Under the pieces are notes generated by a model. The model ran no database searches, was not told the origin of the DNA, and worked only from the letters and a program-made list of their open reading frames with translations. Of a stretch of DNA of 64,000 bases, positions 32,398 through 45,437 are shown piece by piece. Position numbers and translations under genes: made by a program. Source of the DNA: a virus. The DNA is taken from the IMG/VR virus record IMGVR_UViG_3300042546_000155, one strand, 5' to 3'. Within the stretch, counting starts at the first letter, position 1, and each line of letters opens with the position of its first letter.

Positions 32398-32817
32398 TTA
32401 TTCTTCGGTGTATTTCTTCTTGCCTAGAGAATACTTAGCAACTAGATTCCATTCTGACTTCTCGCCGTATGATATGATCTTGATACGGTTAATAGGAGTC
32501 AAAGGCTCTTGTGACTTCTTAGGATCGACTAATGAAACCAATCCCCATTCTGCTAGAAGATTGGCAATCGTGTTACGACGACCTCTATCTTCCTCAGAGA
32601 AGTCTGTTGGCTTGTTATCTAGAATAAACATTTCTTTGAAATGAACAAGGTAGTAATGCCCTTGCTTATGTAGAATATGACAAGACTGATAAAGAGTCTT
32701 ATCTTTCTTAGACGCCACACCAATGCGGGTCAGCGTCTCCTTTACCTTTAAAAAGGCTTGAGGGTCGGGAAGTTTAACTTCCACGAACTCGTCTAGGTTT
32801 ACTGTCATCTGTGCCAC
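32398..32817 (-). CDS. regA: translational repressor RegA
   Basis: FLKVKETLTRIGVAS, LYQSCHILHKQG, HFKEMF, RRNTIANLL. Confidence 0.95.
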   Translation of the reverse strand: MAQMTVNLDEFVEVKLPDPQAFLKVKETLTRIGVASKKDKTLYQSCHILHKQGHYYLVHFKEMFILDNKPTDFSEEDRGRRNTIANLLAEWGLVSLVDPKKSQEPLTPINRIKIISYGEKSEWNLVAKYSLGKKKYTEE

Positions 32818-33181
32818 CCTTATGAATCTGTTTTTTTATTTCTTCTATCTGGTTGGCATTTAGTAAAACCATCACTTCTTTCGCCTTTTCGTAAGAGTAG
32901 TTGTAATACTCTTTCACAGCTTCCAGATTCTCAATGGTCTCACGCTTCTGCCATGGTCTAAATGGACGTTTGTATCCACGGATGGTATTTAGTAAATACT
33001 GATATTGCAGGGATCCTGGCAACGAGGGATAACGGTTCATTTCATTTGCTTGCAAAACGCAATCATAGTGAAACGAGAGGGCCCGGTTCACTACGAAAGC
33101 ATTATAATCTTTTTCGGTTTCCAAGACATCCTTCTTAGTTTGAAGGATGCTTGGAATGATATCTCTGAATAGGTCTGTCAT
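32774..33181 (-). CDS. 62: clamp loader small subunit (gp62)
   Basis: YNAFVVNRALS, ANEMN, KEYYNYSYEKA; synteny 44-62-regA. Confidence 0.9.
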   Translation of the reverse strand: MTDLFRDIIPSILQTKKDVLETEKDYNAFVVNRALSFHYDCVLQANEMNRYPSLPGSLQYQYLLNTIRGYKRPFRPWQKRETIENLEAVKEYYNYSYEKAKEVMVLLNANQIEEIKKQIHKGGTDDSKPRRVRGS

Positions 33182-33558
33182 TGTATAGCAACCAACTTTC
33201 TAACAAGATAAGGTAAATTACAATTCTCGGATATGAGTCTGATAAAATTCTTATCAGTTTTTTTAACCCAAAGAATGTATAATAGATACTCAGGATTTTC
33301 ATTGAAGATATCTATAATACGATCACCTTTATACATACCAAATGGCATAACGTCTGTTGACTCGTTATATGGATACTCCTTTATGATTTCATCAAATCGT
33401 TTGTCTATGATAGAAGCATACTCTTCCCGAGTTATCTCACCTTTCAATTTTTCGTTGAACGTTTCCTCAACGAAACTCTGGACGAATCCATGTTCAATTA
33501 CTGTTCTTTGAGTTGCCTTGAATTGTCCTGTTTGAAACCTTGATGCTCTAGCATACAT
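33178..33558 (-). CDS. hypothetical protein with MPFGxYKG motif
   Basis: Inserted between genes 44 and 62 and coupled to both. Confidence 0.6.
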   Translation of the reverse strand: MYARASRFQTGQFKATQRTVIEHGFVQSFVEETFNEKLKGEITREEYASIIDKRFDEIIKEYPYNESTDVMPFGMYKGDRIIDIFNENPEYLLYILWVKKTDKNFIRLISENCNLPYLVRKLVAIQ

Positions 33559-34493
33559 TACTTTACCTCACACTCAACCATCAGTTCTGTTAGACATGCA
33601 ACTAGATTGATTTCTTGATCGGCAACGAACGCTGCCTGATACTGATACTTAGCAAGTGTAATAACAGCCGCTGGTACACTCTCGGGCTTTAGATATTCTG
33701 ACAAACCGTCATAGATGTTACGAAACACACGGGCTGGATCAACATCTGAATTGAGAACGACCCACTTACGCATAGCACCAAAGTCTTTACTCTTTAGTGT
33801 CTTGATAAGTTCGTCTAGTTTGCGAACATCATTAACCTGACTAAGAACACCAGCATCAATGTTTCCAGAAGTAGAATACCTCTGGAGTTCGTTAAGAGTC
33901 CTACGATAGTCTGGAAAATATCGCTCAACAATCTTTGCCAATACTTGCTTGTCATATTCAATACCCTCTTGCGAAAGAATGTTTGTTAGTCGCTTAAACA
34001 TCTGCATTGCCATCTTTGACTTTTCATCACCCTTAAGGGAGAAGTCAATGACAGAACAGCGAGAATGAAGGGCATCAATCAGACGAGCCTTAAAGTTACA
34101 GGTGAAGATAAACGAACAGTTTTCACTAAACTCCTCGATGGCACCACGCAGGCCTGCCTGCGCCTCTGGAGTTAGATAGTCTGCTTCGTCAAGGATGATA
34201 ACCTTACGACCACCTGTAAGAGATACAGTAGAGGCATAACCCTTGATCTTTGTTCTAAGGGTGTCAATACCTCTTTCATCGGACGAGTTAATGAAAAGAT
34301 GATTAAGGCCAATCTCCTCACACATCGCCTTTGCCACTGTAGTCTTACCGCAACCGGCAGACCCAGTGAGCATTAGATTTGGGATTTCTCCCTTTGTCAC
34401 ATACTCCTGAAAGACCTTCTTTAGGCGATCAGGAAGAATACAGTCCTCAATCTTGTGAGGACGATACTTCTCAACATATAGATATTCACTCAT
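33558..34493 (-). CDS. 44: clamp loader large subunit (gp44)
   Basis: VEKYRP, GSAGCGKTT, IILDEAD, SRC. Confidence 0.95.
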   Translation of the reverse strand: MSEYLYVEKYRPHKIEDCILPDRLKKVFQEYVTKGEIPNLMLTGSAGCGKTTVAKAMCEEIGLNHLFINSSDERGIDTLRTKIKGYASTVSLTGGRKVIILDEADYLTPEAQAGLRGAIEEFSENCSFIFTCNFKARLIDALHSRCSVIDFSLKGDEKSKMAMQMFKRLTNILSQEGIEYDKQVLAKIVERYFPDYRRTLNELQRYSTSGNIDAGVLSQVNDVRKLDELIKTLKSKDFGAMRKWVVLNSDVDPARVFRNIYDGLSEYLKPESVPAAVITLAKYQYQAAFVADQEINLVACLTELMVECEVK

Positions 34494-34651
34494 TCATTCC
34501 CCTTATCATAGCGGATTGCATTGATATACATTATAGCAGAAACGAGAAGATAAAACAACCAGTGCATGATATCATTCTCATCGATAGCAAAGTAGATAAG
34601 GGCAGCCACAAGATTGGCCGCCCCCACAAGTTCAAATGCCAGTTCAATCAT
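34490..34651 (-). CDS. small membrane protein (53 aa)
   Basis: Hydrophobic ORF, ATGA-coupled on both sides. Confidence 0.5.
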   Translation of the reverse strand: MIELAFELVGAANLVAALIYFAIDENDIMHWLFYLLVSAIMYINAIRYDKGNE

Positions 34652-34944
34652 GGTGCAGTCTTCTCAATAACTGCGGTATAGAACTCCTCAAAGTCGGTGT
34701 TCTCCTGAACCTCATCCTTGAAGTTTGCCTTAAAGTATGCACGAGACATACGGCGAAATAGCTTCTTATCGATGCCTAGCTTGTCGCAGACTTCATTAAC
34801 GGTTTCTTTCTGCAACTCACGCTCCGCCCCCACACGAGTCATTGAGTCATTCATTTCAATAACAGCCTTTTTAAGTGTCTTACGATCTTCATCGGTAAGA
34901 CCCTGAACCGAGCGTTGCTGCTGGTTATGACCAATCATACTCAT
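34648..34944 (-). CDS. dsbA: DsbA-like double-stranded DNA-binding protein
   Basis: SMTRVGAERELQKE...LGIDKKLFRRMSRAY...F..E pattern. Confidence 0.6.
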   Translation of the reverse strand: MSMIGHNQQQRSVQGLTDEDRKTLKKAVIEMNDSMTRVGAERELQKETVNEVCDKLGIDKKLFRRMSRAYFKANFKDEVQENTDFEEFYTAVIEKTAP

Positions 34945-35053
34945 TAGAGGCCTCCGTATCCAATACCACAATGCTTCTGCTTTGCGGTCTGTTTCGTTTC
35001 GAGTAGTTCAATAACCTTCAATAGAAGGCTTACCATATAACGATCATCAAACA

Positions 35054-35320
35054 TTAGTTTACCTCAATAATTGCGGATGGATTGATACAAAGGCGGCCAT
35101 CTTTACTACCTTTGATGTATGAATAGGTAACAACCGGATATCCACCAGAATCTACACAAACTTTTTGAAATGCATTGCGCTCCAGATCGTTCTGGTGAGC
35201 AACATATAACATTGCAATGACAGTAAGCACAGAAATACCGACTGTGCCGAGAATAATTACACCAAGTGGATCAAGCCATTCAGAAACGGCTCGACTTGCA
35301 AACTGACGATCACCCATCAT
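35054..35320 (-). CDS. hypothetical membrane protein
   Basis: One TM and C..GG...C. Confidence 0.55.
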   Translation of the reverse strand: MMGDRQFASRAVSEWLDPLGVIILGTVGISVLTVIAMLYVAHQNDLERNAFQKVCVDSGGYPVVTYSYIKGSKDGRLCINPSAIIEVN

Positions 35321-35973
35321 TACTTTGTCTCCAGAGCAATGAAGTATGTAAGAGTATTGTTGGCATTCGTAAACTTAGCAAACGCACCAGCCTGAACCTC
35401 AACGGTGTAATCATCAGGAAGCAACTTTAGATTGTCGATCTTGAAGGTTGCAACGAAGTCCTTGCCAGCATAGTCACCAATCTTGACTGAACCCTGATTG
35501 GAAGTATCGTTTGCCTTTTCATGAATCTTGATAAGAAGTTCACCGTTCTTACCAATGACAGATAGATTAGGAATAGAGTTAAGAACTGCTCTCTTGATCC
35601 AATTCTGAAAAGATGAATTGAGTAGGGTGAACTTAACATCAACCGACTTTAAAGCAAGTTCCTTATCTGGTGGGGTGATGATTAGGTTTGTAGAACAACC
35701 GAGATAGTTAAACGACATTTCACCATCAAAGATCGTAACAGAATCCTTGTCGAATGTAATCTCGGTATTCTTGATAAGAGTTAGATTGGCAAGGAACTGA
35801 TTAAGATCATAGATGCCAAACTGATTTGGGATTTCATCCTCAAGAGTAGCCTCTACAAGAATAGACTTTTCGGGGGAGATAGTTTTCTGAACCTTGCCTT
35901 CATTTAGAACAACGCCGCTATTGATAGAGGCAAAGTTCTTTAGAACATTCAAGGTATTTTCACTTAGCTTCAT
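35320..35973 (-). CDS. 45: sliding clamp (gp45)
   Basis: MKLSENTLNVLKNFASIN, FGIYDLNQFL, YFIALE. Confidence 0.95.
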   Translation of the reverse strand: MKLSENTLNVLKNFASINSGVVLNEGKVQKTISPEKSILVEATLEDEIPNQFGIYDLNQFLANLTLIKNTEITFDKDSVTIFDGEMSFNYLGCSTNLIITPPDKELALKSVDVKFTLLNSSFQNWIKRAVLNSIPNLSVIGKNGELLIKIHEKANDTSNQGSVKIGDYAGKDFVATFKIDNLKLLPDDYTVEVQAGAFAKFTNANNTLTYFIALETK

Positions 35974-35984
35974 TATAAACTCCT

Positions 35985-36581
35985 TTATACGGGATGATGA
36001 AATATGGTACGAGGTTTTTCGATTCCTGTCAAGAGCAAACTGACTTCCTTATTCAGTTCAGCCAGAGTGCCGTTGTTGAAGACGGTATAATCAGGAAAGA
36101 TATCAGTCCATGCGGTCTCCGATATGTGCATCTTTGCAAGTTCTTCGGTGCTAGGATATTTACCTCTAGAAACATGAATTATCTTGCCGCCGACACTCCG
36201 GATAAAATCGATTTCATTCGGGAAGCGGCAATCGGAGATAACAACATCTTCATAACCATGGATACGCTTCTCTAAGGCAGCAATCCATATGTTATCAGCA
36301 ATGCCATGGCGACAAGCTTCGGTACCAAACTTTTGTAGAATGAGACGAGGAGTTACCTCGTATCCTAGCTTATGTGACCACCATGGATCAACAGTCTCAC
36401 GAAAGGTCCGTGAGGCATTACTATCACCTTCTAGAAGGCCCCGTGGCCACATAAAGATTGTGGCAACGGCATCCTTTAGAGCATCAGCAAAGGCAAACTT
36501 TCTATAGCCGTGATCTTTAACGAGAAGATCGGCTACGGTGCCCTTGCCGGATCCGATAAACCCGACAAGGCCGATAATCAT
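35985..36581 (-). CDS. 1: dNMP kinase (gp1-like)
   Basis: IGLVGFIGSGKGT, FADALK, PRLILQKFGTE, SDCRFPNE, HISE. Confidence 0.9.
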   Translation of the reverse strand: MIIGLVGFIGSGKGTVADLLVKDHGYRKFAFADALKDAVATIFMWPRGLLEGDSNASRTFRETVDPWWSHKLGYEVTPRLILQKFGTEACRHGIADNIWIAALEKRIHGYEDVVISDCRFPNEIDFIRSVGGKIIHVSRGKYPSTEELAKMHISETAWTDIFPDYTVFNNGTLAELNKEVSLLLTGIEKPRTIFHHPV

Positions 36582-37384
36582 CGCAAAGCACCTGTAAGAG
36601 CGGCGACGGCTGGTAGATCACCCTGGAACGCATATGTTCCAACATGTGTAGTCTTCATCCATGGGCATAGCCAAACCTTGATGCCAATAGCACGAGCATT
36701 CTGACAGAACATATAGTCCTCCGATAGATAGCGGTGTGATTGTGGGTCGATGACTGTATCAAAGTAGGCGTGAATGTAGCGAGTACCATCAAAGTTGGCC
36801 TGACCGATATGATCTGGCTTATAGTTCAACTCTGGATACTTTTCAGCATAAGTATCAAACACTTCACGCTTTACCATCATGAAGCCGGTACCAATCTCCA
36901 TAACTTCAACTGGCTCGGTAACTCTGAATGACTTAGTACCAGGAACTGGATTGAAAACGAAGTCACCGGTGACCTGATCTAGCTCATTAGGATTGAAGCC
37001 TTCCTTGTCAGCATGGTTCTTAACTGCATTGACAATGTTAGCCCAATTGATTGTCTTCTTAGGATATGGACCACCAATGATATCACGATCCATTGCTAGA
37101 AGGGCGATAACATCTTGTGGATTGAACTGAATGTCGGCGTCGATAAACAACATATGAGTGCAACCAGAACGAAGAAATTCATCAACGAGATAGTTTCTGG
37201 CACGGGTGATTAGAGATTCATTGAAGATGAATGAGAAGCGACACTCCACGCCATACTGAATGCACAGCCCTTGAAGGTCTAAACATGCTTTGGCATAAAG
37301 TCCTGTGCAAACACCACCGTAGCAGGGGGTGGCGATAAACAACTTTCTCTTTCTCAATTCATCTGTTGTAATTTTAATTTCCAT
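36578..37384 (-). CDS. GT-A fold glycosyltransferase-like protein
   Basis: IATPCYGG, ESLITRARN, FIDADI, GTGFM, SEDYMFC. Confidence 0.7.
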   Translation of the reverse strand: MEIKITTDELRKRKLFIATPCYGGVCTGLYAKACLDLQGLCIQYGVECRFSFIFNESLITRARNYLVDEFLRSGCTHMLFIDADIQFNPQDVIALLAMDRDIIGGPYPKKTINWANIVNAVKNHADKEGFNPNELDQVTGDFVFNPVPGTKSFRVTEPVEVMEIGTGFMMVKREVFDTYAEKYPELNYKPDHIGQANFDGTRYIHAYFDTVIDPQSHRYLSEDYMFCQNARAIGIKVWLCPWMKTTHVGTYAFQGDLPAVAALTGALR

Positions 37385-37456
37385 AATGTTCTCCATACAC
37401 GAAAAGCGTGGAGCCCAAAAAGGCACCACGCTTATATATAGTATTCTTTTTAAGAA

Positions 37457-37678
37457 TTAGTTAGCAAGGCGATAGAAAGCGGTGCGCTTGCCATTGACCT
37501 TACGCCAATTGGTATAGATGGTGTAATGCTCACGAAGATCGTAAACTCGCTTGGCAACTGCCTCATATGGCACACGAGCCATGCGGGCAATAGAAGCGGC
37601 AGTAATGCCTGGACCAGTGTTATGGTTTAGCAGGGCGGTTTCAATCTTCTCAATCTGAGTCTTACGGGGTGTAGCCAT
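37457..37678 (-). CDS. small winged-helix DNA-binding protein
   Basis: ITAASIARMARVPYEAVAKRVYDLR...IYTN...FYRL; GGAGA RBS. Confidence 0.6.
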   Translation of the reverse strand: MATPRKTQIEKIETALLNHNTGPGITAASIARMARVPYEAVAKRVYDLREHYTIYTNWRKVNGKRTAFYRLAN

Positions 37679-37702
37679 TATATAATTCTCCATTCAAAGT
37701 TT

Positions 37703-37770
37703 TGGTGTTGGTGGTCGTGAAAGGAAAGGACCCGTGTATAACCACCAACACCATTTTATTATACACGGGT
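37703..37770 (-). ncRNA. H-type pseudoknot element between the cobS-like gene and the wHTH gene
   Basis: Interleaved perfect inverted repeats 37703-37715/37741-37753 and 37730-37741/37759-37770. Confidence 0.65.
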
Positions 37771-37783
37771 ATTCTTATATTAC

Positions 37784-38971
37784 TTAGAAAGCAACTTCCG
37801 CAGTAACATCGGGAGTCGCCTGTTCAGCCACAGGAGCCGGGTCAATCGTCTCATCGACTTTCTTATACAGTTCCATGAAGGCATTCTTAGTATCCACATC
37901 GAAACGGTTCAGACAAAGTTCAATTGCTTTCACTTTGTTCTGACCAAAGATTGCATAAGCCTCGCAGATATGAACGAGACGACGGGTAGAGATAATCTCG
38001 GACAAAGCACCTTCATAGAAGGACTTGCGAATAACATCTGCCCAAGTGACCATCTTATCAACAAAGTCGGTGTTAGAAACACCAGAAGCATTGAGGACAT
38101 TGTTGAGGATTTTAGCCTCAACTTTAGCAGACGGATATTCTTGTTCCATTGTAATGCTGAAACGCTCAAGGAACGCTTCGTTCATAACATTGGTGCCGAT
38201 GAAACGGCCGTCATCAGAACCCTTACCCTTAGTGTTTGCAGTTGCAATCACATTGAAGCCAGGAGCAGGATGAACAACACGATTGGTCTTTTTAAGATAA
38301 ACAGCCTTGCCTTCAAGGACAGGCTGAAGGCACATCATCTTATTAGAACCAAGATCCACTTCGTCAAGAAGGAGAACGGCACCACGAGTCATGGCAGTAA
38401 CAACAGGTCCGTCCTGCCAGACAGTTTCACCGTTAACAAGGCGGAAGCCACCGATCAAATCATCTTCGTCGGTTTCAATAGTAATATTGACACGGACACA
38501 TTCACGCTTTTCATTAGCGCAAACCTGTTCGACCATCATAGTCTTGCCGTTGCCAGAAAGACCAGTAATGTAAGCGGGATAAAACTTACGAGACTTGATA
38601 ATAGCACGAACATCAGGGAAGTTGCCAAACGGGACATAGCCAGTTGCCTTTTCAGGCACAAGCGACATTTCAGCATTATGCGAAAGAACAGACGGAGCAA
38701 CCATAGCAACTGCTACAGTCGGCTCAACGGGAGCCACAACCTTAGCAGGCTTAGAAACAACCTTAGCGGCAGTTTCAGAACCATGCTCGGTGATTGCATA
38801 AAGACCACGACCGAGACGGCGGTCAGCATCATTCAAGAACCAATGAGGCCAAGCGAGATTATACTTTTCAGTAACCTCTTTAACCTGGGCACGAGTGATT
38901 TCACGGATAGCACCAAACTCAAAACGCACCTTGTCGAAAAACTCGGTACGAGCAGCAGCAACCTTAGTCAT
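37784..38971 (-). CDS. CobS/MoxR-like AAA+ ATPase
   Basis: GLSGNGKT, DLIGG, LLLDEVD, ATANTKG, AFLERF, STRRL; start at the second Met behind GAAAGGAA. Confidence 0.9.
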   Translation of the reverse strand: MTKVAAARTEFFDKVRFEFGAIREITRAQVKEVTEKYNLAWPHWFLNDADRRLGRGLYAITEHGSETAAKVVSKPAKVVAPVEPTVAVAMVAPSVLSHNAEMSLVPEKATGYVPFGNFPDVRAIIKSRKFYPAYITGLSGNGKTMMVEQVCANEKRECVRVNITIETDEDDLIGGFRLVNGETVWQDGPVVTAMTRGAVLLLDEVDLGSNKMMCLQPVLEGKAVYLKKTNRVVHPAPGFNVIATANTKGKGSDDGRFIGTNVMNEAFLERFSITMEQEYPSAKVEAKILNNVLNASGVSNTDFVDKMVTWADVIRKSFYEGALSEIISTRRLVHICEAYAIFGQNKVKAIELCLNRFDVDTKNAFMELYKKVDETIDPAPVAEQATPDVTAEVAF

Positions 38972-39004
38972 ATGAGTTCCTTTCACAATTCTCATTATGC
39001 ATAT

Positions 39005-39054
39005 ATTATAGCGGAAGGAAGGGCTTTTGTCAAGCCCCTCCTAAGTGTTTGATT
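39005..39054 (-). promoter_or_regulatory. sigma70 promoter plus IHF-consensus site
   Basis: TTGACA-N17-TATAAT (39005-39033); AATCAAACACTTA = WATCAANNNNTTR at 39042-39054. Confidence 0.75.
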
Positions 39055-41238
39055 TTACGCTACTTTCTTGGAATGACCAGCAATCCGTTCCACAAACTGG
39101 CGCAAAAGAACACGGTTTACCGTCTTTTTCTGGGCAAACTTGGAGAAAGCGGAAGCCATCTTTTTGACGGTCATTTTCTTATCACCGGAGTTATCGATTT
39201 CCAGATTGTTCTCCGTGTCTTTCATGGCAGAGGTGTTGATGATATAATACTCATCATAGCCCGCACTCTTGACAGGATAGTATTTGTTGTCACTCCAGTA
39301 TTTACGAGCCTTCGTAAAGGCATCGGGATTGCCATTAGAGATACCATACTCGTTATCAATACGCTTGAAGTTATTGTAGTCGTAAAGAAAGAAGCCGACG
39401 AGATTGCAGCCGGTGCTATCTTTTAGAATACGCAGCAGCGTATTGGTGTTTTCACGAGTGGCACTCCAATGATGAGGATACCAATCGTAAGTCTTATTGG
39501 TGATCGGATCGACATAGAAATAACGAGTGTTATGCCCCTTTGTAAAGTTGCGAGGTTCGTTGGAGTTTTCAATACCAGCAGAACCATTCGACTCGCCATC
39601 GGTGAGCCAAACAACATTCGTGATTTCCAGCTTGTTACGAGTCGTAAACTCACGGATGACCTTGGGTGCAATCATGATTGCATCATTAAGCGGGGTACCG
39701 CCCATTGTGTCACTCGCAAGATAATGACCCATACCAGCAGCCCAAAGGAACGACATTGCGAAATTCATTTCCTGAATGTTCATTCGGGAAGAGAGGAAGT
39801 TGCGCAATACCAAGCGGGAGCCTTTAATCACATTCTGCTTACCGATGTAAGAGAACGGATTATCAGCACCAGAATCCTTGAAGCCATAGACCTCGAAAGG
39901 CACACCAATCTGCTTACAGAACAGGGTAAGCGAAAACAACTGCTTCAAAGTCTCTTGAAGGTTGTAATGCATAGAACCGGACCAGTCAATGAACATAACA
40001 AAGCCATGGTTCTTACCCTTAGGCGTAGTAGCAAGACGACGGAAGATATCGTCGTTATACTTGTAAGAATGAAGCTTGTTGGTGTCGATAACACCAGTCT
40101 TAGCCACATTGATACGAGCATAAAGTTCGGCAGCCTTACGCTGTTCAAACTCCTTGACCATGAAAGAGATTGTTTCTTTCTCTTTCATTTTCCACTGGGT
40201 CATAAGACGACGGCAATCATCAAATGCCGCATTGCTAAGAGGCGTAGCATAAGGCGACTTTTTATTGCCAGAAAGTTCATCACGCCAATCTTTGATAACG
40301 ACCTTATAGTCATTAACAGCCTTATCCCAATTGACATTAGGCATTGTCAGATAAACGAAAGTGGAGTTTTCGTTCTTAACAATTTCCTCAGACTTACGCT
40401 GCCAAGTTTCATCAGTCTCGGAGCGAGGAGCATTAGAAGGAGCCTCTGACTGACCAGCGCCCTTACCGAAGCCACCAGCACCCGAAGACTCGCCTTCGCT
40501 TCTTACACCCTGGCTTTTGCCGTTTTCATCTCCATCACCTTCATCACCATCAATTTCCTCATAATCAAGGTCGTCAAGATCAACATCATCATCACCTTCT
40601 CCTGCAATTAGGTCGATTTCCATTTCATTTTGTTCTTCGAGTTTCTTCTTACAATAGGCGTAAATTTCCTCAGTAAGAGAAACAACATCATCCCAAGTTT
40701 CAGCGTTTTCAACTTTCTTGAGAAGAACCTTTTCTTCGGAAGAGAAGGTAATATTCATATGCACATTACCACCCTTGAAATAGATATTCAAGCGGTCGAT
40801 AAAGTTCATTGAATTGATATCACGGTTAGCGGTACCGAAAAAGTCACGCTCAACCAGTTCTTTGTAGCCAGCAAGATAGTTGCGACGGCAGCCAGGATAA
40901 CGGCGCTTTTGACGCTTATCAATACGAGCATCCTCGATAACATTCAAGAAGCCTTGAACGGTACGACGGAGAGCCTCGGAGACTTTCTCACCAGGAAAAA
41001 TCTTAGCAGCAAGATCATCGGCAGTCTGCTTATAAACATCGGCAGACGGAGTATCAAGAGCATGACCAGTTTCATGAACCAGCAAAAGGTCCTCAAGGTC
41101 ATTAGAGATACCCTGCCAGATGGGCAGCATAAGGACACGGTTCTTAAGGTCAAACATAGCCGTCTTAAGCGCCGGGTTGCGCTGGACGGTGATGTTTTCC
41201 GTAGCGAGGAGTTTAGCAAGAAGCGACTTATCCGACAT
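39055..41238 (-). CDS. CobT-like VWA protein with N-terminal HExxH peptidase-like domain
   Basis: HETGH, NVIEDARI, acidic linker, MIDAS DWSGS, GGTPL, LTDGES. Confidence 0.85.
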   Translation of the reverse strand: MSDKSLLAKLLATENITVQRNPALKTAMFDLKNRVLMLPIWQGISNDLEDLLLVHETGHALDTPSADVYKQTADDLAAKIFPGEKVSEALRRTVQGFLNVIEDARIDKRQKRRYPGCRRNYLAGYKELVERDFFGTANRDINSMNFIDRLNIYFKGGNVHMNITFSSEEKVLLKKVENAETWDDVVSLTEEIYAYCKKKLEEQNEMEIDLIAGEGDDDVDLDDLDYEEIDGDEGDGDENGKSQGVRSEGESSGAGGFGKGAGQSEAPSNAPRSETDETWQRKSEEIVKNENSTFVYLTMPNVNWDKAVNDYKVVIKDWRDELSGNKKSPYATPLSNAAFDDCRRLMTQWKMKEKETISFMVKEFEQRKAAELYARINVAKTGVIDTNKLHSYKYNDDIFRRLATTPKGKNHGFVMFIDWSGSMHYNLQETLKQLFSLTLFCKQIGVPFEVYGFKDSGADNPFSYIGKQNVIKGSRLVLRNFLSSRMNIQEMNFAMSFLWAAGMGHYLASDTMGGTPLNDAIMIAPKVIREFTTRNKLEITNVVWLTDGESNGSAGIENSNEPRNFTKGHNTRYFYVDPITNKTYDWYPHHWSATRENTNTLLRILKDSTGCNLVGFFLYDYNNFKRIDNEYGISNGNPDAFTKARKYWSDNKYYPVKSAGYDEYYIINTSAMKDTENNLEIDNSGDKKMTVKKMASAFSKFAQKKTVNRVLLRQFVERIAGHSKKVA

Positions 41239-41263
41239 ATGTGTTCCTTTCACGATTTTCATA

Positions 41264-41315
41264 AGTATAGCAAATCAGGCCGGGTTTGTCAAGTCCTAAT
41301 GGAATCAATCACTTA
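41264..41315 (-). promoter_or_regulatory. sigma70 promoter plus IHF-consensus site
   Basis: TTGACA-N17-TATACT (41264-41292); AATCAATCACTTA at 41303-41315. Confidence 0.75.
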
Positions 41316-41445
41316 CGAAGATATACATATAGCCAAGAAACGGAATAGATCAGAATGTAAACGGCAGCGACCATTAGGAAAACTTCCGCAATCTCACCGG
41401 TATGCTTAAGCTTATCAAAATCGAAATAGTTAGGGGTATAATGCA

Positions 41446-43062
41446 TCATTTAACCTTTCTGAAAACGAAAACGGGTTCATATTTCAGCATGATCTTTTTG
41501 CCATTGTTTTCAATCTGACAAAAGTTTTTCATCTTGCCTTCAAGGATGACTTCCGTTTCTTCTTCGCCGGTAATAGGGTTGATTGTTACCTTTTCACCAG
41601 TCTCAACCATTCTGTTTCCGCCCGGCATTTGAGCAAGAGCCATCTTTAGAGTTCCGACATATTCCATTCCCAACTCTTTTAATATATTACAGGAATCTTC
41701 CTCTAATGTCAATAGCTTCCCATCAAATGCAGCATCAGCAATGTTCCAAAGAAGATAACGATCCGGTCGTAGGTAGCTAACGGCAGTCTCCAGAGTAGGT
41801 CGTAGAAAACCATCAACCCAATCCTCATATTGCGAAAACTTGTGACAAGATTGTTCGGGATCATCCGAATAGACCTCTTTTGCAAAATAAGGTGGTGAAG
41901 TGAACACCATATCAAGCTTGCCCTTATACTTTTGAAAGCCAGGCTGAAACTGTGCTACCTCAGACCCACACTGAAAAATCTCATATGTGTGTGACTTAGG
42001 GAACAGACTGCCATTCTCTCTTACATTCTCATTGAAGAAATCTGCCACTTCATGGTACTTAGTGCGACCAGGAGTAGTGTTATGGTCTGTATTAGGATCA
42101 GTACCAATGTAATGAATCGTTCTCTTGTCATCTACAGACATAGCTCCTACGATACGACCTGCCCAACCACTAGAAGGATCCCAAATGTTGATTACATCTT
42201 GATCCTTGATATGATCAGTGAAACGCTCATAAAGATAACGAGCGGTGAGTGGTGGATAGTTCACCGCATACTGACAGAAAGACACTCTAAATGATTTAAG
42301 ACCTAGAGGGAATATCTTCTGTCCTAGTTTGAATAGACGAATGGTGTATGCATTGGTCTTGTTACGATCAACATTGGTGCGACAACGCTCTGGTACCTTA
42401 TCAGCATAATCAGCGTCCACAATCACATTCTGTTTCTTGCCTAGAGTAGCAGAATAGCCTGTGTAAACCTTATCTTCTTTGATAGGGCAAAGCCAGTAGT
42501 CCCAACCTTCTTTGTCTTTCATAAACTCAATAAACTGGTCAGCAGACTCAACATGATATGGAATGTTGTTTATGCGTCCGGTATCACCAATGCTAATAGG
42601 ATTGGAATAATGGTAAAAAGAGTCACGCTTAAAGTGTCTAGAGGCATAAGTAACGAAGGTGTCCAGATAGTCATCATCAGCAAAATAATCATAGATCGAC
42701 TTAGCCTTGCCTTTTGTTGAATATGAAATGCCCGTCTTCATCATGGTAGGGAACCATTGATTGACAGCATTGCCTACTACAGAGGTGTTACGAATAACAT
42801 CTTTCTCACCTGTGCGAAGGTCGAGCGTTTCAAACTCATGAACTGGAAATGAAACCATCTTCTGAAAGTTATCAACTATACCATCTTTGGTAAAACCCAC
42901 ACGAGGAGGAATGCCTTCTTCATCCCATAAGCGCACAACCTCTTTACGCATATCAATGACCCACTGACGAAACTCATCATTGGTCATCCATAGCAGTTCT
43001 TCAAATGTCTTATTGACAGGAGAGTTTAGTAACTGGTCATTGCGTTCATAAAACCATTGCAT
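41446..43062 (-). CDS. amino (N4C/N6A) DNA methyltransferase, large
   Basis: WDPSSGWAGR SAM motif, GTDPN, FTSPPYF. Confidence 0.8.
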   Translation of the reverse strand: MQWFYERNDQLLNSPVNKTFEELLWMTNDEFRQWVIDMRKEVVRLWDEEGIPPRVGFTKDGIVDNFQKMVSFPVHEFETLDLRTGEKDVIRNTSVVGNAVNQWFPTMMKTGISYSTKGKAKSIYDYFADDDYLDTFVTYASRHFKRDSFYHYSNPISIGDTGRINNIPYHVESADQFIEFMKDKEGWDYWLCPIKEDKVYTGYSATLGKKQNVIVDADYADKVPERCRTNVDRNKTNAYTIRLFKLGQKIFPLGLKSFRVSFCQYAVNYPPLTARYLYERFTDHIKDQDVINIWDPSSGWAGRIVGAMSVDDKRTIHYIGTDPNTDHNTTPGRTKYHEVADFFNENVRENGSLFPKSHTYEIFQCGSEVAQFQPGFQKYKGKLDMVFTSPPYFAKEVYSDDPEQSCHKFSQYEDWVDGFLRPTLETAVSYLRPDRYLLWNIADAAFDGKLLTLEEDSCNILKELGMEYVGTLKMALAQMPGGNRMVETGEKVTINPITGEEETEVILEGKMKNFCQIENNGKKIMLKYEPVFVFRKVK

Positions 43063-44023
43063 TTAGCATTCCTTCAAACTGTGCATAATATTGGTCAGGC
43101 GTCTTGAGGACGGTAAAAAGTTTGTTCTCAATTTCTTCGAAGTGATCAATATACTCTAAACTGTGATACTTGTCAAGATACTCATCGAATGATCTTACCC
43201 TCTGCCAATCGGTAGCGACAAAGGTTTTATCTTCGTCATAGTTATCCCAGACAAAGGGAAAGATGCCACATGCAACGGCTTCAACATATCTTGAGGTTGT
43301 TGCTTTAGGATCCATCCAGTTAAAGCATAATGTGGACCGTGAAAGCAATAGAGTAGGAAGAATGTCTTTCATCTTACCCCATCTTTGGTCTCTCTTGAAA
43401 CCATGAAAACGACCAATGAACCATGTATCAAGGTCGCTCTTATGAATCTGTTTTAGAATTGTATGGCGCTGGTCGCCTGATAGCTTACCATCAATTGTCT
43501 TGCGCTTGTCCGAACCCCAATATACAAAGTCAATCGTCTTCTCATCATGAGGGAAAAGAAAACTATGGTTCTTGATGAAACGATATTTCATACCATGAAC
43601 ATTACCAAAGTCACATTCATCAATCGTCTCATATGTAATGTTCATATTAGGGAAGACTTTAGTTCTGTATAGTTCTTCATCGTCACGGCGATCTGACCGT
43701 AGAATGATGACCTTCTTGCCTTCAAAGTATGGTTTGATTGTCTCAAGATGCTCATTAGATCGTTTCAAATCTAATGTGTGAATAGCACCAGGGATCCAAT
43801 AAGTGAACTCTGCTTCACTGGGTATGATGATAATGTCTGCATTTTTGATTGCTTCTGGTTCACGACGAGGCTTCATGTTGAAACCGAAATTGTAATAATA
43901 CCATTCATGCTCAGGATGATTGCGCACATACAACTTTAGCAACTCAAAGAATGAGTCCATGATATGTTCCAACGGAACGATATAGTTAGCCGAAGAACGG
44001 AGACGACAAATACAAATCTTCAT
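43046..44023 (-). CDS. T4 beta-glucosyltransferase-like GT-B protein
   Basis: KTIDFVYWGS and TSRYVEAVAC...WDNYD recall T4 BGT KTLDVIYGGS and TLRVWETMAS...DEEFD; similar length. Confidence 0.55.
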   Translation of the reverse strand: MKICICRLRSSANYIVPLEHIMDSFFELLKLYVRNHPEHEWYYYNFGFNMKPRREPEAIKNADIIIIPSEAEFTYWIPGAIHTLDLKRSNEHLETIKPYFEGKKVIILRSDRRDDEELYRTKVFPNMNITYETIDECDFGNVHGMKYRFIKNHSFLFPHDEKTIDFVYWGSDKRKTIDGKLSGDQRHTILKQIHKSDLDTWFIGRFHGFKRDQRWGKMKDILPTLLLSRSTLCFNWMDPKATTSRYVEAVACGIFPFVWDNYDEDKTFVATDWQRVRSFDEYLDKYHSLEYIDHFEEIENKLFTVLKTPDQYYAQFEGMLNAMVL

Positions 44024-44826
44024 CCTGCTACATTCCATACCAGACAAGGCTCTTTTCGGGAGTGTCCTTCGTGATATTCTTTCATGACATGCCATACCTT
44101 TGCATCATAGGTAGGTGCAGAAGGATAAGGCGGTGTATGTTCTTTCTTCACTGGCTTGTCAAACTTGTATGGCGACTTGTGCAGTATGGCACGCCCGATT
44201 TCTCTAGGGCCCATTGTATGTCCTACAGATACCACATGAACTTCTGCATCAGGCCATGCAAGTTGCAATGCTCTCGTTAGAGTGCCAGATGATCCTACGG
44301 ACCAGACCTCTTTGGGAGAAACCGCAATAGAACGAGCAACACGAATAATACAAGCAATCGAGGTAGGGTGTTCAACACCAATTGGAAGTAATGCTCTTTC
44401 GTCAGGCAATTCTGCAACATAGTCTTTAGCCCTCTTTTGCGTAACCGGAAGCATACCGTTCGGGACCCAATGATATTCACCGCCAAGTTCAATGCCACGC
44501 TTTTGATACTCATGTAATTTATCCATCGATCTTTCTGCCATAAAGATTACGGCTTTTTTGTTATAACGATTGCAAATGAAGGGGAGGGAGATTTGAGCAT
44601 AGCCAGTTGCAGGCGATGATCCATACACCCACTCTTTTATGTTTGCATATTCAGTCGCATGACCAATAAGATAGTCACCGGCTCTCGCCTTAGAACCAAC
44701 AGAAAGAAGGTCATCACGAACAACATGATAACCTTCGTGTTCTACAATCACTGGTGCAGGATTGGGATCAACCCAATTGCCGATTAGGCTTAGATAGTCT
44801 TCTGCTGTTTCATTGTATAGCGTCAT
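44020..44826 (-). CDS. fold-type II PLP-dependent enzyme (ACC deaminase/D-Cys desulfhydrase-like, minimal)
   Basis: VVRDDLLSVGSKAR (PLP Lys), SVGSSGTL phosphate loop, PTYDAK, LVWNV. Confidence 0.75.
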   Translation of the reverse strand: MTLYNETAEDYLSLIGNWVDPNPAPVIVEHEGYHVVRDDLLSVGSKARAGDYLIGHATEYANIKEWVYGSSPATGYAQISLPFICNRYNKKAVIFMAERSMDKLHEYQKRGIELGGEYHWVPNGMLPVTQKRAKDYVAELPDERALLPIGVEHPTSIACIIRVARSIAVSPKEVWSVGSSGTLTRALQLAWPDAEVHVVSVGHTMGPREIGRAILHKSPYKFDKPVKKEHTPPYPSAPTYDAKVWHVMKEYHEGHSRKEPCLVWNVAG

Positions 44827-45437
44827 CTTTGCTCACTAGTTCAAAAGCATCCTCAGGGAATGTTTTATTTGGTTGCTGACCGATAAGTGTTACAATACCA
44901 GCGTCGGCAATCATCTTGTCTATTATGTATATCTCATCTATTAGAAGTTCACGATTGACATAAGGAAAGCCTGGCTTCAATCTTACAACATCACCAGACT
45001 TAAATGTGTTAAAGTCAACTTTCACTTCCAGCGATCCTTAATCTCTTTCACCCGCTCATTCATAAATGTTTCTAGAATCTCACGAACATTGTCATACTTA
45101 GGATTGTTTCTCACATGATATAATTCTAGGGTATAAGCAGAGAGAACAAGTTGTTCATGCGAGTAGTGGTGGGTCTTGTGCGGGTCTGGTTTTTCCATTA
45201 GTGAAATGCTCCTGTTTTGATTAGGCCAGAGACATAGATTAAAGTAATCACCAACTGGATTATGATTAACGACCACTTACGCCATGATAGAGCAACAACA
45301 AGCCATCCTAGATTACCTGCCATTGATAGATAGACATTAAGCGGGTATATGTTTACAGAGGTTAAATAGGCACCACACAATAGAATTGCTGTTGATGCCC
45401 ACTCAAATACAAACTCAACTTGCTTCGGCACAGACAT
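44810..45437 (-). CDS. three small hypothetical genes (44810-45025, 45022-45198, and 45198-45437, a 3-TM protein)
   Basis: Coupled ORFs; the last is very hydrophobic. Confidence 0.55.

Follow-up and report, generated by a model that had tools for sequence, protein, structure and literature searches.

The region between a cobS-like gene and a small gene for a winged helix-turn-helix (wHTH) protein, in an uncultured freshwater T4-like phage, contains two long interleaved inverted repeats, and a segment enclosed by them is antisense to the leaders of the cobS-like gene and of the cobT-like gene located further upstream. The locus raises the question of whether these repeats fold into a regulatory RNA and, if so, which transcripts carry the fold and what the enclosed segment could pair with. 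It was analysed in a stretch of 64,000 nt (the window), taken from the reverse strand of the complete 174.5-kb IMG/VR record IMGVR_UViG_3300042546_000155; coordinates refer to the window and, unless stated otherwise, to features on its minus strand. A first-pass annotation of the window had proposed a static pseudoknot, likened to that of T4 gene 32, whose loop acts as an antisense guide against the ribosome-binding sites (RBSs) of both upstream genes. Comparison with related loci shows that the element is a real structured RNA, previously uncatalogued: no match on it was obtained with the Rfam covariance models at E <= 1.

Two interleaved stems and their conservation

The element (37770-37703) lies between the cobS-like and wHTH genes. 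In the direction of transcription it comprises the 5' arm of stem A (arm A, ACCCGTGTATA(A) / ACCCGTGTATAA, 37770-37759), the 5' arm of stem B (arm B, TGGTGTTGGTGGT, 37753-37741), the 3' arm of stem A (arm A', (T)TATACACGGGT / TTATACACGGGT, 37741-37730), which is located inside the loop of stem B, a CU-rich loop of 14 nt (CCTTTCCTTTCACG / CCUUUCCUUUCACG, 37729-37716) between A' and B', and the 3' arm of stem B (arm B', ACCACCAACACCA, 37715-37703). The first-pass description of two perfect interleaved stems without a spacer is exact at the sequence level, with 11-12 bp in stem A and 13 bp in stem B in the order A-B-A'-B'; arms B and A' abut, one T being common to both. This arrangement corresponds to the S1a-S2a-S1b-S2b topology of an H-type pseudoknot. 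The nested minimum free energy of the region is lower than that of shuffled sequences (z = -3.2), and the folding energies of stem A alone and stem B alone are -15.3 and -21.0 kcal/mol, respectively. The end of A' is separated from the GGAG of the wHTH gene by 39 nt, and stem A sequesters neither the Shine-Dalgarno sequence (SD) nor the AUG of this gene.

Megablast and tblastn against the GenBank phage collection found nothing closely related to the region or to the wHTH gene, so the comparison is based entirely on IMG/VR and metagenome contigs. With the wHTH protein as query, 28 and 61 IMG/VR loci and 35 metagenome loci were obtained, in overlapping sets that amount to ~100 related loci. They include 35 distinct main-type element contexts, 29 of which entered the count of base pairs. 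Across these 29 distinct sequences paired cells make up 98.6%, vs 24-52% when the partners are slid against each other. In stem B 98.9% of the cells are paired and compensatory changes are found at 7 of the 13 pairs, and even wholly different B arms (TGATGCTGCCGGT, GACGTTGCAGGT, GGTGTTACAGGAT and TGATACTGACGGT) have remained complementary. The internal one-sided changes of this stem comprise ~6 G.U pairs on the mRNA-sense strand vs a single A.C, and a series of G-C, G.U and A-U is seen among relatives (L072 and L076; L083; L134). Because these one-sided changes are sense-strand G.U pairs, stem B is taken to be a helix formed in RNA that has the sequence of the coding strand.

Stem A of the main family has one compensated pair among 11, a change from C-G to U-A that is present in 8 of the 29 distinct sequences. 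In a second family, the arm sequences of which are different (ATACCCTGCTATAAT, ATACCTTGC..., ATTACCTAC..., ATTCCCTGA...), stem A extends to 15 bp and 5 of the 15 pairs are compensated. The first-pass annotation had made its proposal depend on conservation of the stems, and both are kept by compensatory evolution. In the second family the A/B/A'/B' layout is retained, and the place of the CU-rich loop is taken by a tRNA-like insert or by a short, unrelated sequence. Both families have next to no spacer (0-1 nt) between B and A', and their two helices add up to 24-25 bp (main family) and 21-22 bp (second family); the near-zero spacer and the similar sums hint at coaxial stacking of B and A'. The element accompanies the wHTH gene always, and per genome the loop motif and the A/A'-type promoter are each present once. 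An antisense small open reading frame on the plus strand, starting from a GTG in A', was considered and rejected, as its peptide changes at most positions with the compensatory changes of the stems.

The tRNA-like insert of ~72 nt between A' and B' (L053:2390-2470, L078:186-256, L013:398-469 and L046:2386-2457) has GCGGAG in its acceptor stem, and its CCA is encoded. It is either reported by ARAGORN as tRNA-??? with a 2-nt anticodon or missed, and it scores 25 bits with the Rfam tRNA model, the cut-off of which is 29. The 'anticodon' arm has 5-8 bp and a loop of 4-6 nt that always contains UUCC or UCCC. The insert could be an RNase P processing signal or another anti-SD display.

A promoter within the structure

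An internal sigma70-type promoter is predicted at 37758-37786. Its -10 hexamer TATAAT (37763-37758) is conserved and forms the 3' end of arm A, and the sequence at the -35 position (37786-37781, TAAGTA) is degenerate in the window, matching at 2 of 6 positions, because it overlaps the cobS stop codon. Among the relatives, a perfect TTGACA is located 16-17 nt 5' of the arm-A TATAAT in 13 of the 35 distinct main-type contexts and in all second-family loci. The -35 sequence matches at 4-5 of 6 positions in another 10 main-type contexts (5/6 in four of them) and at no more than 2 of 6 in the remaining 12, the window included. Arm B begins 4-8 nt after the -10 hexamer in every variant, which is the expected initiation point for sigma70. 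The transcription start is predicted at ~37752-37750, in the first bases of arm B, and the outermost pair of stem B, located upstream of this start, is the least conserved one.

Since the predicted start follows arm A, stem A would form only on read-through RNA from cobS. The cobS gene is located directly upstream in almost all loci, at a gap of 100-200 nt and with only its 3' end diverging, and read-through RNA is therefore expected everywhere. In the window, where the -35 sequence is so degenerate, this RNA is probably the main or only form from which the element arises. As judged from the sequence, the two stems would belong partly to different transcripts. A simple static pseudoknot, as first proposed, does not accommodate an arm A that overlaps the -10 hexamer and a stem B that begins at the predicted start, and this picture must be revised into a promoter-spanning, transcript-dependent fold. 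The public sequencing runs listed with this DNA comprise 24 DNA runs and no RNA run.

At G000:C1:22100-22190 (plus strand), in the same genome but outside the window, a promoter of the composition TTGACA-TTCCTTTTCCT-TAGTG-TATAAT (G000:22116) has a spacer that is perfectly complementary over 11 nt to the SD AGGAAAAGGAA of its own gene, with a fold of -35 kcal/mol. This SD would be masked on read-through RNA and not on promoter-initiated RNA, following the logic of T4 gene e (see below) with a sigma70 promoter.

Complementarity of the loop to the cobS and cobT leaders

The sequence GTGAAAGGAA occurs three times in the window, at 37717-37726 (plus strand), 38977-38986 and 41244-41253 (both minus strand), vs 0.16 copies expected, and none of 100 shuffled sequences reached three copies. 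The same three are the only exact copies in the whole 174.5-kb genome. The loop is complementary to the cobT-like leader over 12 nt (TCGTGAAAGGAA) and to the cobS-like leader over 10 nt; both matches had been reported in the first-pass annotation and can be read directly in the sequence. The copy in the cobT leader (UCGUGAAAGGAA) is located at 41255-41244, and both leader copies lie 5 nt before the true ATGs, i.e. in the position of the SD. The energy of the loop-leader duplex is estimated at ~-18 to -19 kcal/mol, vs -8.8 kcal/mol for the loop and the SD of the element's own (wHTH) gene; masking of the latter by the loop was rejected as too weak.

No other part of the element is as well conserved as the loop: of its 14 positions, 10 are invariant and 3 nearly so, while the stems vary. 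Every relative that has the loop also has cobS and cobT leaders to which it is complementary. In the relatives the leader motif (UC)GUGAAAGGAA(A) precedes cobS, cobT and a small number of further early genes. Its distance to the ATG is always 4-8 nt, whereas that to the -10 hexamer is 4-18 nt, so the motif is linked to the RBS rather than to the promoter. Within the motif, GAAAGGAA is the SD itself and is conserved everywhere, and the flanking GUG represents the informative part. In genomes with the canonical loop this GUG is kept in all cobS leaders (21/21) and all cobT leaders (17/17), that is, in 38 of 38. The loopless genomes consist of the second family and two loci without the element; here, 4 of the 8 distinct cobS leaders read CUU, CUG or CAG in place of GUG, and the cobT leaders read CGAG in 5 cases of 5. 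A main-type lineage with the loop end CAUC has CAGG in its cobT leader, and in the near-complete loopless genome G005 the sequence GTGAAAGRAA is absent altogether. In the CobS tree the loopless genomes form one clade and two singletons, and all three losses in the cobS leader fall inside the loopless clade. By a rough branch-length estimate, the p-value of the co-occurrence is ~0.05 for cobS alone and ~0.01 with cobT, which is suggestive without being conclusive. The loop variant CCUUUUCUUUCACG retains the pairing through G.U, and the loop end CACU co-occurs with the leader sequence AGUG in one genome (G010), which represents a compensated case. The possibility that the leader GTG is an upstream in-frame start codon was rejected, the frame relative to the ATG not being conserved.

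The motif of the cobS leader is itself displayed by a hairpin (38972-38995), the stem of which is formed by AUGAG (38995-38991) and CUCAU (38976-38972). The hairpin ends at the start codon, and its loop displays UUGUGAAAGGAA, with the motif at 38986-38977 directly before the ATG. The stem covaries in main-type genomes (AUGAGA/UCUCAU, AUCGAA/UUCGAU, UAAUC/GAUUA), and single-sequence folds place the motif in a predicted hairpin loop of 13-17 nt in ~15 of 19 main-type leaders; the hairpin is lost in the loopless clade. RNAalifold gave no consensus for the cobS leaders, because the MAFFT alignment loses the variable registers of the stem. On the side of the element, the seed is predicted to be within the 25-nt loop of stem B. 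Both complementary sequences would thus be displayed in loops, which is the geometry of kissing antisense RNAs. An anti-RBS function is plausible and represents the best single explanation for the CU-rich loop, with a probability that falls just short of even.

The leader (G)UGAAAGGA is also found at other early genes, namely at G000:C1:24403 and 160332 (plus strand), outside the window, and at ~45539 (minus strand) within it. At G000:160332 the sequence ...gcataatGTGAAAGGAg... is located behind a TTGACA promoter. Promoter and leader seem to have been duplicated as a unit to several places in the genome, and the set of possible targets may extend beyond cobS and cobT.

Genomic context

The genome, with a G+C content of 41%, encodes the T4-like markers gp45 clamp, deoxynucleoside monophosphate kinase and a RegA homologue, and contains 10 exact promoters of the type TTGACA-N16-18-TATAMT, vs 0.09 expected. 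The closest phages in GenBank are myoviruses of Pelagibacter and cyanobacteria, with CobS proteins ~54-55% identical; the Pelagibacter phages are the nearest ones for CobS.

The order on the minus strand is cobT promoter, cobT-like gene, cobS promoter, cobS-like gene, element, wHTH gene and terminator-like hairpin. The cobT promoter (41292-41264) consists of TTGACA (41292-41287) and TATACT (41269-41264), and the cobT-like gene (39055-41238) is of the VWA type and belongs to phrog_459. The cobS promoter, including its stem-loop, is located at 39005-39041 (TTGACA 39033-39028, TATAAT 39010-39005) and is followed by the cobS-like gene (37784-38971), coding for an AAA+ ATPase of the MoxR/CbbQ type. 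As a correction, the true start codons of the two genes are ATG 41238 for the cobT-like and ATG 38971 for the cobS-like gene. The -35 sequence of the cobS promoter is located in the loop of an 8-bp stem-loop (GGAGGGGC/GCCCTTCC, 39041-39034 / 39024-39017), and this stem covaries in relatives (L001-L076: CGGGGGT/ACCCCCG, CGGAGGG/CCCTCCG, GGAAGGGG/CCCCTTCC). By analogy, it fits well with the composite terminator/promoter of the promoter-early stem-loop (PeSL) type. A strong GC-rich hairpin right after cobS is present at L027:2900-3000, in a locus without the element, and in L083 and L121, which have an extra spacer after cobS; a role of the post-cobS position as RNA 3' end or terminator may be ancestral.

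The wHTH gene (37457-37678) encodes a protein of 73 amino acids. Its start is most likely ATG 37678, and not 37693, as indicated by the conserved beginning MATPRK... and by the SD GGAG (37691-37688) located 9 nt 5' of the ATG. The protein has no match in Pfam or PHROG. Its assignment as a winged helix is borne out by an AlphaFold model with a predicted local distance difference test score (pLDDT) of 87, the best PDB matches of which are domains of the MarR, ArsR and Stf76 types. A terminator-like hairpin followed by a T-run is read from the sequence 3' of the gene (37402-37432) and would close the cobS-wHTH transcription unit.

The gene after this hairpin (36578-37384, minus strand) belongs to phrog_1574 and has a weak match to Anp1-like glycosyltransferases. 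It contains a conserved in-frame CGCTTTTCTTTCATC that resembles the loop motif but is coding, and that is a false positive in pattern searches for the loop. A homologue of the translational repressor RegA is encoded at 32422-32784 (minus strand; Pfam PF01818, 149.6 bits) and might act on the conserved early leaders too. A RegA operator was considered as the source of the leader motif and set aside: RegA is present, but the antisense copy would stay unexplained.

Alternative explanations

Several observations weigh against a regulatory pairing of the loop with the leaders, or against parts of the proposed fold. The transcription starts and RNA ends are predictions. According to a geometric estimate, loop 1 of the pseudoknot would span 13 bp with 4-7 nt and loop 3 would span 11 bp with 14 nt, which is sterically borderline. 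The one-sided changes in stem A are a mix of sense-strand G.U and A.C; base pairing in this stem appears to be selected, but its strand and chemistry are not as well established as those of stem B. Since the interleaved stems are also found where the CU-rich loop is missing, the scaffold has a function independent of it, for which promoter-dependent folding, protection of the 5' end and processing of the cobS-wHTH RNA are candidates; the loop looks like cargo added to this scaffold. Since GAAAGGAA is the SD and 13 genes of the genome use GAAAGGA, part of the complementarity is generic anti-SD likeness. The GUG is still present in 4 of the 8 distinct loopless cobS leaders, so the leader motif is independent of the loop there. 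The co-occurrence of loop and GUG rests on few independent events, the loopless genomes being essentially one clade, and an independent-pairs test finds two independent losses of the element and hence has no power. In G011 and G012 the leader sequence AGUG occurs with the loop end CACG, which is an uncompensated case, and true covariation between loop and leaders is nearly absent because both are mostly invariant. On whether loop and leader sequences vary independently, the question on which the first-pass annotation had staked its circuit, the result is divided: the GUG decays only where the loop is missing or altered, and there is no clean compensatory series.

These points lead to the possibility, unlikely but to be taken seriously, that the structure is real while its loop has another job and the match to the leaders is incidental, owing to anti-SD likeness and phylogenetic inertia. 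The loop could be the pyrimidine or U tract of a weak terminator or 3'-end hairpin, formed by stem A, that ends or stabilises the cobS mRNA, or a tract bound by S1, Hfq or another protein that aids translation of the wHTH gene. The base of stem A is GC-rich and is followed by UCCUUUCCUUUC, relatives lacking the element have the strong GC hairpin at this place after cobS (e.g. L027 and L083), and the cobS promoter is a stem-loop/promoter composite of the PeSL kind (PMC4122927). The occurrence of the interleaved stems without the loop motif, the frequent use of GAAAGGA as an SD in the genome and the small number of independent events behind the GUG co-occurrence agree with this explanation as well. 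On the other hand, a U or pyrimidine tract needs no 13 near-invariant positions, CAC among them, arm A' of the second family is not followed by a U-rich tract, and the retention of the GUG and of the motif-displaying leader hairpin only together with the canonical loop would remain unexplained. A simple terminator scan of 33000-45000 did not call the site, where stem A has a loop of 17 nt and the tail CCTTTCCTTTC.

Two further explanations are both improbable. In one, also raised in the first-pass annotation, TCGTGAAAGGAA is a double-stranded DNA operator for the wHTH protein or another factor, through which cobT and cobS are co-regulated and the wHTH gene is autoregulated. Three copies in 3.6 kb, all within ~40 bp downstream of promoter -10 hexamers, next to a gene for a MarR/ArsR-like winged helix, are in line with this, DNA binding tolerates the inversion of one copy, and co-conservation of the three sites is equally expected. 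The operator is weakened above all by G005 (165 kb, 99% complete), whose wHTH protein is the closest to that of the window (85% identity) and which has no GTGAAAGRAA; moreover, the motif has no dyad symmetry, stands at an SD-like distance from the ATG but anywhere between 4 and 18 nt from the -10, and in the cobS leader it lies in the loop of a covarying RNA hairpin. The other one, hardly more convincing, is a static H-type pseudoknot serving as a protein-bound translational operator in the manner of gene 32 or Escherichia coli rpsO, e.g. in autoregulation of the wHTH gene. It would account for the constant association of the element with this gene, and the abutment of B and A' with 0-1 nt in both families, together with the like summed helix lengths, makes coaxial stacking possible; by a rough estimate of the Dirks-Pierce type, the pseudoknot would be more stable than the nested fold by ~10 kcal/mol, provided that the sterics allow it. 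Yet arm A is located upstream of the predicted internal start, so that promoter-initiated mRNA cannot form the knot, loop 1 is short for a 13-bp stem 2, and loci whose wHTH protein is still 75-85% identical can have the tRNA-like insert or a short, unrelated sequence in the position of the loop. The element has no similarity to the gene 32 operator and no match in Rfam.

Proposed mechanism and implications

Taken as a whole, the cobS-wHTH region is best explained by a composite RNA-level control element, a reading adopted tentatively, its chances being close to even but below. Of the anti-RBS circuit first proposed, the conserved stems, the near-invariant loop and the complementary leaders stand, while covariation between the partners is nearly absent and the stems also exist without the loop.

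In this composite element, RNA initiated at the internal promoter would lack arm A, so that stem B would become a hairpin at the very 5' end, in whose loop of ~25 nt A' and the CU-rich motif would be unpaired. Read-through RNA from the cobS promoter would hold all four arms and could fold otherwise, with formation of stem A followed by the H-type pseudoknot, or with A and B as alternatives. The principle would be that of a structure formable only by upstream-initiated transcripts, as in T4 gene e and I-TevI. The least certain step is the pairing of the exposed loop with the leader motif (UC)GUGAAAGGAA(A) of cobS and cobT. As the cobS motif is presented in a hairpin loop, this contact would be made loop to loop; it would hide the SD and reduce translation of the AAA+/VWA pair. 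The loop might work in trans, as part of the wHTH leader, or in cis, on RNAs that span both cobS and the wHTH gene.

In its most complete form, this mechanism makes the wHTH leader a riboregulator, the invariant anti-SD loop of which kisses the hairpin-displayed cobS and cobT ribosome-binding sites, and in which arm A, from the -10 region, refolds read-through RNA into a pseudoknot. The origin of the transcript would then decide whether the guide is exposed, and the scaffold would be modular, with an anti-SD loop, tRNA-like cargo or none. That all of these parts hold together is a possibility only, and a rather doubtful one.

Regulation by RNA base pairing has hardly been documented for lytic phages of the T4 type. 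According to a review of T4, no regulatory small RNA from this phage has been functionally characterised (PMC3014915). The cobS/cobT-like pair is widespread in phages; a covarying RNA that links it to a small regulator would offer a testable handle on the manner and timing of its expression. The promoter-in-stem layout would extend the read-through-only folding of T4 to promoters of the early sigma70 kind and to a design in which two stems are interleaved, and the fact that relatives differ in their cargo (an anti-SD loop, a tRNA-like insert or nothing) suggests a reusable scaffold for RNA display. Should the anti-RBS idea fail, uncultured freshwater phages would still have yielded a new structured RNA motif with good support.

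Comparison with known systems

In the T4 genes e (lysozyme), soc, 49 and I-TevI, only transcripts initiated upstream form the helix, the promoter being located in or just after its 5' strand (PMC3014915). The layout found here is similar to that of gene e and I-TevI in that arm A carries the -10 hexamer and the predicted start follows arm A. It is different in that the embedded promoter is of the early sigma70 type, while theirs is the late TATAAATA, in that stem A excludes the downstream SD and AUG, in the presence of a second, interleaved stem, and in the loss of the -35 sequence in the window.

The PeSL elements are composite terminator/promoter cassettes of T4-type phages (Arbiol 2010, PMC2839356; Comeau 2014, PMC4122927). 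They share with the element the T4-like phage background, the combination of an early sigma70 promoter with a conserved stem-loop, and the location in a short intergenic region before a small gene. However, they occur in many near-identical copies per genome, on the flanks of variable open reading frames, and have a proposed role in recombination, whereas the element is single-copy; its inverted repeat spans the -10 hexamer and the transcribed leader, and it has a second interleaved stem and a conserved loop.

The c4 RNA of phages P1 and P7 and the Staphylococcus aureus RNAs RNAIII and RsaE are antisense, anti-SD riboregulators that direct C/U-rich loops to the ribosome-binding sites of their targets, and c4 RNA is encoded in the same gene cluster or transcript as its targets. 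The element resembles them in its pyrimidine-rich loop complementary to SD regions and resembles c4 in its location near its putative targets, and the cobS target is also loop-displayed, in a kissing geometry. Unlike them, the putative regulator is the 5' leader of an mRNA and not a separate small RNA, as there is no terminator after B'; the targets are located upstream, and covariation of the partners is essentially absent.

The pseudoknot of T4 gene 32 is small, located in the leader of the gene for a single-stranded DNA-binding protein, and nucleates the binding of gp32 (PMC3014915). The H-type topology in a phage mRNA leader is common to both. However, the stems of the element have 11-13 bp, one arm is located upstream of the promoter start, and there is no relation in sequence or in Rfam; with a gene for a 73-residue winged helix downstream, the analogy to gene 32 drawn in the first-pass annotation is not apt.

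Stem-loops at the 5' end, such as that of the ompA 5' untranslated region, protect mRNA from 5'-end-dependent attack by RNase E. Stem B is similar in that it begins 0-3 nt from the predicted 5' end, and different in its unusual length of 13 bp and its large loop with a conserved sequence or a tRNA-like insert. The element would combine a transcript-selective structure of the T4 type with anti-SD riboregulation.

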